A stretch of DNA of 64,000 nt from assembly GCF_003334335.1 (NCBI RefSeq), contig NZ_QOWQ01000004.1; one strand, given 5' to 3'. Made by a program: the position numbers. The DNA is from Escherichia coli. GTDB taxonomy: Bacteria; Pseudomonadota; Gammaproteobacteria; Enterobacterales; Enterobacteriaceae. Positions 29,201 to 32,200 of the stretch are shown one piece after another. Position 1 is the first letter of the stretch. Every line of letters begins with the position of its first letter.

Positions 29201-32200
29201 AGGTTGGTTTTCTCCCTCTCCCTGTGGGAGAGGGCCGGGGTGAGGGCATCAGCGCGCACGTTCACCCTCACCCTAACCCTCTCCCTCAAGGGAGAGGGGA
29301 CCGATCGAGCACAAATTTTGAGAGATATCTTCTTCTGTCTTGTAACAGAAGAACAGAAAATCGGGCTTTTGCGCCTGAATATTGCGGAGAAAAAGCATGG
29401 CCGGGAATGACCGCGAGCCAATTGGACGCAAAGGGAAACCGACGCGTCCGGTCAAACAAAAGGTAAGCCGTCGTCGTTACGAAGATGACGATGATTACGA
29501 CGATTATGATGACTATGAGGATGAAGAACCGATGCCGCGCAAAGGTAAGGGCAAAGGCAAAGGGCGTAAGCCTCGTGGCAAACGCGGCTGGCTATGGCTA
29601 CTGCTAAAACTGGCTATCGTTTTTGCCGTGCTGATCGCCATTTACGGCGTTTATCTCGATCAAAAAATTCGTAGCCGTATTGATGGCAAGGTCTGGCAAC
29701 TGCCTGCGGCAGTTTATGGCCGAATGGTCAATCTTGAGCCAGACATGACCATCAGCAAGAACGAGATGGTGAAGCTGCTGGAGGCGACCCAGTATCGTCA
29801 GGTGTCGAAAATGACCCGTCCTGGCGAATTTACCGTGCAGGCCAACAGCATTGAGATGATTCGCCGTCCGTTTGATTTCCCGGACAGTAAAGAAGGACAG
29901 GTGCGCGCGCGTCTGACCTTTGATGGCGATCATCTGGCGACGATCGTCAATATGGAGAACAACCGTCAGTTCGGTTTCTTCCGTCTTGATCCGCGTCTGA
30001 TCACCATGATCTCTTCGCCAAACGGTGAGCAGCGTCTGTTTGTGCCGCGCAGTGGTTTCCCGGATTTGCTGGTGGATACTTTGCTGGCGACAGAAGACCG
30101 TCATTTTTACGAGCATGATGGAATCAGTCTCTACTCAATCGGACGTGCGGTGCTGGCAAACCTGACCGCCGGACGCACGGTACAGGGTGCGAGTACGCTG
30201 ACGCAACAGCTGGTGAAAAACCTGTTCCTCTCCAGCGAGCGTTCTTACTGGCGTAAAGCGAACGAAGCTTACATGGCGCTGATCATGGACGCGCGTTACA
30301 GCAAAGACCGTATTCTTGAGCTGTATATGAACGAGGTGTATCTCGGTCAGAGCGGCGACAACGAAATCCGCGGCTTCCCGCTGGCAAGCTTGTATTACTT
30401 TGGTCGCCCGGTAGAAGAGCTAAGCCTCGACCAGCAGGCGCTGTTAGTCGGTATGGTGAAAGGGGCGTCCATCTACAACCCGTGGCGTAACCCAAAACTG
30501 GCGCTGGAGCGACGTAATCTGGTGCTGCGTCTGCTGCAACAGCAACAGATTATTGATCAAGAACTCTATGACATGTTGAGTGCCCGTCCGCTGGGGGTTC
30601 AGCCGCGCGGTGGGGTGATCTCTCCTCAGCCAGCCTTTATGCAACTGGTGCGTCAGGAGCTGCAGGCAAAACTGGGCGATAAGGTAAAAGATCTCTCCGG
30701 CGTGAAGATCTTCACTACCTTTGACTCGGTGGCCCAGGACGCGGCAGAAAAAGCCGCCGTGGAAGGCATTCCGGCACTGAAGAAACAGCGTAAGTTGAGC
30801 GATCTTGAAACTGCGATTGTGGTCGTCGACCGCTTTAGTGGTGAAGTTCGTGCGATGGTCGGAGGTTCTGAGCCGCAGTTTGCGGGCTACAACCGTGCGA
30901 TGCAGGCGCGTCGTTCGATTGGTTCCCTTGCAAAACCAGCGACTTATCTGACGGCCTTAAGCCAGCCGAAAATCTATCGTCTGAATACGTGGATTGCGGA
31001 TGCGCCAATTGCGCTGCGTCAGCCGAATGGCCAGGTCTGGTCACCGCAGAATGATGACCGTCGTTATAGCGAAAGCGGCAGAGTGATGCTGGTGGATGCG
31101 TTGACCCGTTCGATGAACGTGCCGACGGTAAATCTGGGGATGGCGCTGGGGCTGCCTGCGGTTACGGAGACCTGGATTAAACTGGGCGTACCGAAAGATC
31201 AGTTGCATCCGGTTCCGGCAATGCTGCTGGGGGCGTTGAACTTAACGCCAATCGAAGTGGCGCAGGCATTCCAGACCATCGCCAGCGGTGGTAACCGTGC
31301 ACCGCTTTCTGCGCTGCGTTCGGTAATCGCGGAAGATGGCAAAGTGCTGTATCAGAGCTTCCCGCAGGCGGAACGCGCTGTTCCGGCGCAGGCGGCGTAT
31401 CTGACACTATGGACCATGCAGCAGGTGGTACAACGCGGTACGGGTCGTCAGCTTGGGGCGAAATACCCGAACCTGCATCTGGCAGGGAAAACAGGGACTA
31501 CCAACAATAACGTAGATACCTGGTTTGCGGGCATTGACGGCAGCACGGTGACCATCACCTGGGTCGGCCGTGATAACAACCAGCCGACCAAACTGTATGG
31601 TGCCAGCGGGGCAATGTCGATTTATCAGCGTTATCTGGCTAACCAGACGCCAACGCCGCTGAATCTTGTTCCGCCAGAAGATATTGCAGATATGGGCGTG
31701 GACTACGACGGCAACTTTGTTTGCAGCGGTGGCATGCGTATCTTGCCGGTCTGGACCAGCGATCCGCAATCGCTGTGCCAGCAGAGCGAGATGCAGCAGC
31801 AGCCGTCAGGCAATCCGTTTGATCAGTCTTCTCAGCCGCAGCAACAGCCGCAACAGCAACCTGCTCAGCAAGAGCAGAAAGACAGCGACGGTGTAGCCGG
31901 TTGGATCAAGGATATGTTTGGTAGTAATTAACATCTAAGCGTGAAATACCGGATGGCGAGTTGCCATCCGGTAAAATAACATCCCATCTAAGATATTAAC
32001 CCTTTCTTTTCATCTGGTTGTTTATTAACCCTTCAGGAACGCTCAGATTGCGTACCGCTTGCGAACCCGCCAGCGTTTCGAATATTATCTTATCTTTATA
32101 ATAATCATTCTCGTTTACGTTATCATTCACTTTACATCAGAGATATACCAATGGCGCGTTCCAAAACTGCTCAGCCAAAACACTCACTGCGTAAAATCGC

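Follow-up and report, generated by a model that had tools for sequence, protein, structure and literature searches.

The mrcB locus of Escherichia coli

The stretch of Escherichia coli DNA analysed here (64,000 nucleotides, hereafter the window) carries the gene mrcB (ponB) on its plus strand, with a coding sequence for full-length alpha-PBP1b at positions 29397..31931 (+) that comprises 844 amino acids plus stop according to the ORF listing, the translation and RefSeq. The RefSeq CDS of identical sequence is 2535 nt long, starts at ATG 29397 and belongs to a feature with the product name 'bifunctional glycosyl transferase/transpeptidase'. In the ORF listing of the window the gene is flanked by hrpB (26727..29201) and by fhuA, which begins at 32151, and the ORFs of the window follow the order thpR, hrpB, mrcB, fhuA of the RefSeq feature table. 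Moreover, many E. coli chromosomes annotated with hrpB and mrcB match 701 bases around the start of mrcB at 100% identity, and the encoded protein reaches 1734 bits over residues 1-843 with the NCBIfam PBP1b equivalog model NF007061 (cutoff 1120) and 1247.5 bits with TIGR02071 PBP_1b (cutoff 717.75). The gene is thus mrcB/ponB, encoding PBP1b, a class A penicillin-binding protein.

The primary start is preceded by an SD-like GGAG at 29386..29389 (+), which leaves a 7-nt spacer to ATG 29397 by direct reading and forms a duplex of -6.6 kcal/mol with the 3' end of the 16S rRNA. The open frame reaches five codons further 5', to a TTG at 29382, and a mechanical ORF call gives a protein of 849 aa; this TTG was ruled out as the start of mrcB by the RefSeq annotation and by the conserved N-terminal peptide that begins at ATG 29397. 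In this regard, all the 80 orthologues compared below begin at the position of ATG 29397 and carry that conserved peptide.

The spacer between hrpB and mrcB (29214-29298) is occupied by a long imperfect palindrome made of CCCTCTCCC / GGGAGAGGG units, with 27-nt arms that are 81% complementary and additional perfect hairpins of 9-10 nt. Related copies are found at other sites of E. coli genomes (median, 2 places per genome; one match lies on a plasmid), and we take the palindrome to resemble a boxC-type intergenic repeat. An Rfam search of 29000-29800 returned only sub-threshold miRNA-hairpin matches on the palindrome, which are noise.

Anatomy of the internal start

An initial annotation of the window had pointed to an in-frame ATG at 29532, described as codon 46 of mrcB, with a gagga 10 nt upstream, placed just after an acidic tract and before a basic stretch, and had proposed that the short PBP1b isoform starts there. 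Counting from the RefSeq start at ATG 29397, the ATG at 29532..29534 (+) is indeed codon 46, and the SD-like GAGGA is read at 29517..29521 (+), within codons E41-D42 (GAG GAT), so that the spacer (29522-29531) is exactly 10 nt. Translation likewise agrees with the described surroundings: the acidic tract E29-E44 covers 29481-29528 (+), and the basic juxtamembrane stretch K49-G64, common to both isoforms, covers 29541..29588 (+) and is directly followed by a hydrophobic membrane segment from W65. The 45 codons between the two starts (29397..29531, +) make up the alpha-specific cytoplasmic extension, which includes the conserved N-terminal peptide and the acidic tract, and the reading frame of gamma-PBP1b (29532..31931, +; 799 aa plus stop) is nested in frame inside that of alpha. 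Within the species the site hardly varies: of 5425 complete E. coli genomes, 5288 have at least 99% identity over the 70 nt around it.

This arrangement, together with the comparative and published data discussed below, makes it nearly certain that mrcB contains two regions of translation initiation that share one frame, from which alpha-PBP1b and gamma-PBP1b are produced. Initiation at ATG 29397, helped by the GGAG at its 7-nt spacer, would yield the 844-aa alpha form, and ribosomes binding at the internal GAGGA would start at ATG 29532 and give the 799-aa gamma form. The latter is without the 45-residue cytoplasmic extension but has the basic juxtamembrane stretch as well as the membrane anchor and every periplasmic catalytic domain. 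The internal SD is itself formed by codons of the acidic tract, a GAG for Glu followed by a GAN for Asp or Glu. We infer that ribosomes use the two starts of one and the same mRNA, with 30S subunits binding independently.

Strength of the signal and other internal starts in the window

When the 34 long ORFs of the window were scanned for in-frame internal ATGs, 5 nt of the SD consensus (the core) at a spacer of 4-12 nt preceded only four of the 390 (1.0%), codon 46 of mrcB among them. The duplex between the internal SD and the anti-SD reaches -6.1 kcal/mol, the 7th among the 62 in-frame NTG codons of mrcB, and about 9% of the internal ATGs in the window attain the same score, so duplex energy by itself leaves the site unremarkable. 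A spacer of 10 nt is rather long for an SD, beyond the optimum, and the motif itself is short (GAGG/GAGGA). GAGGA is disfavoured in the coding DNA of the window, where Glu codons placed before a GA codon are GAG in 7 of 74 cases, compared with 29% GAG overall. The context of a single sequence is then suggestive and not decisive; the decisive support for the internal start comes from conservation and from published initiation mapping.

The same scan brought up other internal starts. Of the 390 ATGs scanned, the one with the strongest SD lies in a 300-aa gene of the Rpn nuclease family (ORF 11635..12537, NCBIfam TIGR01784), where two consecutive in-frame ATG codons (241/242) at 12355-12360 (+) follow GGGAGGGGAG with a duplex of -10.8 kcal/mol. 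The 60-aa C-terminal product (MMTLAQWFEEKGIEKGIQQG...) has the KGIE repeat described for RpnC-S and, because it carries this repeat, the start at 12355 fits the published rpnC intragenic antitoxin (PMC10400941). Another in-frame internal ATG, at 37287 (+) in an ORF of 660 aa (36129..38111) located at the position of fhuB, has an SD-like CGAGGA at functional spacing and falls roughly where the two halves of the 660-aa protein join.

The RpnS antitoxins (rpnA-E; PMC10400941) resemble the mrcB case in being genes within genes that use an in-frame internal start with a strong SD. However, they are small C-terminal fragments that antagonise the long protein, and they have their own internal promoter, whereas gamma-PBP1b is nearly full length and enzymatically competent. 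The internal transcription start sites of RpnS, and thus the precedent of the rpnC-type gene of this very window, give some ground to consider that the short PBP1b form could be translated from ATG 29532 on a separate and shorter transcript, made from a promoter that would lie within the 5' portion of mrcB. A consensus scan of 29100-29700 for promoters and terminators gave no match, and thus no sigma-70-like promoter, which counts at most weakly against such a transcript since the primary start lacks a match as well. Moreover, the two starts are only 135 nt apart, and PMC13423804 and 10.1101/520783 describe two start codons and, in the text available from them, make no mention of two transcripts. 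Altogether, we regard a dedicated transcript as improbable and keep two initiation regions on one mRNA as the preferred reading.

Conservation in Enterobacteriaceae

One scan of species-representative genomes provided 80 loci, all of Enterobacteriaceae-type mrcB. The 5' end is complete in 79, and these 79 loci plus the window sequence formed the comparison of 80 sequences. The N-terminal peptide of alpha is near-invariant across the 80 species. The codon aligned to Met46 is ATG in 68 of the 80 and GTG in seven (two Silvania, two Leclercia, Klebsiella pneumoniae, an uncultured Klebsiella and Kosakonia cowanii), and the remaining five lack a start codon there: Kluyvera intermedia, Kluyvera genomosp. 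1, Pseudescherichia vulneris, the MAG UBA7338 and Kosakonia sp. S29. In these five species (loci L038, L054, L040, L056 and L062; mrcB codons about 44-50) the region that separates the acidic tract from the membrane segment contains no ATG, GTG or TTG. They retain the alpha N-terminal peptide and the acidic tract, a GAGGA occurs near the aligned position in only two of them, and to judge from their sequences they may produce the long isoform only. The absence of the start codon in 5 of 80 species implies that gamma is not universally required.

Among the 75 orthologues having the start, 69 keep a GAGGA within 22 nt upstream of it, and the spacers of this motif in the orthologues are 10 nt (52), 4 nt (17) or 7 nt (3). 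If GAA encodes E41, a GAG GAA pair located 4 nt from the start, beside a proline codon, usually provides the motif. Codon choice follows the same direction: over the six codons that precede the start, Glu before a GA codon is written as GAG in 72 of 119 cases (60%) against 14 of 309 (4.5%) in the rest of mrcB, these being raw counts that ignore kinship and a class of comparison with only about 4 sites per gene, and against 7 of 74 (9.5%) in the ORFs of the whole window.

Further upstream in the tail, at places with no start codon following, GAG before GA is also fairly common (42 of 101). This observation bears on another explanation, according to which the short form would be a proteolytic product of alpha-PBP1b, and the ATG and the GAGGA a by-product of the codon composition of the acidic tract (GAG then GAN), given that acid-rich tracts automatically yield purine-rich, SD-like strings. 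A third band, beta-PBP1b, is attributed to proteolysis of alpha. A by-product of composition, however, fits poorly with the conservation, across Enterobacterales, of the aligned start as ATG or GTG, and further points against it come from the more distant lineages and from ribosome profiling (see below).

In a sliding-window analysis of synonymous diversity over the 80 orthologues, no dip was found at codons 40-51 (0.365 versus a gene mean of 0.386, 34th percentile), and only the region of the primary start, codons 1-12, stands out (1st percentile). The lack of a dip at codons 40-51 indicates that any constraint is limited to two codons, the one of the SD and the one of the start, with no broad element around them. 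Returning to internal initiation as the preferred reading, the start codon and its SD were found to be retained, beyond what coding constraint explains, over the 80 species and the distant Enterobacterales, on raw counts with kinship ignored, and these comparative data independently support selection on the internal start codon and its SD.

More distant Enterobacterales and start-codon switching

A protein search with residues 1-130 of PBP1b returned mostly gene fragments, which were used solely as entry points to DNA, and through these fragments and the contigs that carry them nine distant Enterobacterales sequences were reached. All nine have ATG or GTG at the aligned codon, and six of them have stronger SDs. 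Five 'PVP' forms all have GTG after GAGGAG or GAGGAGG, with duplexes from -8.9 to -13.2 kcal/mol; in Yersinia pestis the codon is ATG after GAGGAGGA (-11.8 kcal/mol), Serratia rubidaea combines ATG with GAGGA, and two further distant lineages combine ATG with GGGAG or AGGAG-like motifs. The stronger SDs of the GTG forms outside Enterobacteriaceae also speak against a cleavage product whose start-like features are accidental.

All 12 of the 12 replacements of the aligned Met by Val are GTG. This was considered as a proof of start-codon selection and rejected as such, since GTG makes up 59% of the Val codons in these genes, the lineages involved are few and P is ~0.04-0.12; at the level of sequence comparison, the bias offers weak evidence for selection of a start codon.

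A different way to look at these variations is that the gamma start is a lineage-specific element that tunes the alpha:gamma ratio and not a fixed feature. The idea arises from the switching between ATG and GTG, from the two main SD registers (10 or 4 nt) and from the absence of the start in some species (Kluyvera, Pseudescherichia/UBA7338 and one Kosakonia), as well as from the much stronger SDs (GAGGAGG) of Yersinia and of the GTG forms outside Enterobacteriaceae. We hold it as a tentative proposal, more doubtful than likely. If it were true, species would balance the PBP1b of the division site and that of the sidewall differently, and some may produce alpha only.

Predicted RNA structure around the internal start

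Folding of the single E. coli sequence predicts that CUAUGAGG (29513-20), which holds the internal SD, pairs with CCUCGUGG (29571-78), located in the K-P-R-G codons. The minimum free energy of this predicted hairpin is -24.6 kcal/mol over 101 nt (z = -2.24), and in the -30..+75 context the SD, with the downstream CCUC as its partner, has a paired probability of ~0.8, so the internal SD is predicted to be not especially accessible in E. coli. The same SD-CCUC pairing is predicted for Salmonella and some Citrobacter. A conserved RNA structure at the internal start was considered and discarded, as RNAalifold on 72 unique orthologue sequences gave essentially no consensus (-3.0); the downstream CCTC is found in only 45 of 75 orthologues, and other genera fold differently. 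A weaker variant of the tuning proposal can be drawn from these folding models: in E. coli, Salmonella and some Citrobacter, the SD-CCUC hairpin, if it forms, would make gamma initiation depend on the ribosomes that come from the alpha start.

Published knowledge of the PBP1b isoforms

The gene ponB has long been known for its two start codons, from which alpha-PBP1b and gamma-PBP1b are made (PMC13423804, Nat Microbiol 2026, which cites Kato et al. 1984, Broome-Smith et al. 1985 and Chalut et al. 1999 for the dual start). This E. coli pair is the very same locus and feature as the one in the window, with no difference between them: gamma comprises residues 46 onward, and the published N-terminus matches the window sequence exactly (PMC13423804). 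The two isoforms differ in their localisation, since alpha is drawn to the division site, probably via FtsA, and gamma stays peripheral; it is the alpha-specific N-terminal peptide that provides the FtsA-dependent recruitment (PMC13423804).

As checks of its proposal, the initial annotation had called for ribosome profiling of initiation and for mutation of ATG 29532, and both kinds of data already exist in the literature, with the outcome that the proposal foresaw. Regarding the first, the available text of 10.1101/520783 states that retapamulin ribosome profiling (Ribo-RET) in E. coli 'readily identified' mrcB, infB and clpB, three previously characterised internal sites, and that of PMC11005335 reports for Salmonella an internal initiation peak in mrcB with a 42-aa extension, together with peptides unique to the long form. 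As for the mutation, replacement of 'the second start codon' by leucine (M46L) is a published route to express alpha alone (PMC13423804); in the accessible part of this paper the wild type gives bands of 94.2 and 88.9 kDa, and the loss of the lower band in M46L follows the paper's own wording.

These data also weigh on the proteolytic origin of the short form. In the available portions of the two Ribo-RET studies, initiating ribosomes are stalled at the internal site in two species, and an alpha-only protein obtained by mutating Met46, as the accessible text of PMC13423804 has it, is hard to reconcile with a product cut from alpha. Together with the conservation of the start, they leave proteolysis as an extremely unlikely source of gamma. 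Initiation at Met46 as the origin of the short isoform, on which conservation and the published mapping agree, is the reading that we retain, and the internal start of mrcB is real, functional and already known.

Among related cases, the closest is the MrcB pair of Salmonella Typhimurium (PMC11005335), an orthologous internal start with the same motif, GAGGA at a 10-nt spacer. Its extension has 42 residues versus 45 in E. coli because the acidic tract is shorter, and the Met43 found in the Salmonella loci of our comparison (L006 and L071) agrees with the published figure. The infB (IF2 alpha/beta) and clpB (ClpB 93/79) genes are like mrcB in that an in-frame internal start leads to two N-terminally nested proteins. 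However, these proteins are unrelated to PBP1b, and what the truncation of mrcB removes is not a folded domain but a short, disordered tail in the cytoplasm that serves as a localisation signal.

Meaning of the dual start

Genetic and biochemical work and initiation-specific ribosome profiling had already mapped the site in the window, and the comparative details presented here are incremental to that work. What is mildly new is the switching between ATG and GTG, the existence of two main SD registers, the stronger SDs of several distant lineages and the five species without the start. For the annotation of genomes, the case carries the lesson that a single CDS line can conceal two products. 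For the bacterium, the dual start accounts for the presence of two PBP1b proteins made from one E. coli gene, of which alpha alone has the N-terminal peptide. According to recent work, this peptide takes the synthase to the site of division, and the synthase there reinforces the septum against osmotic rupture.
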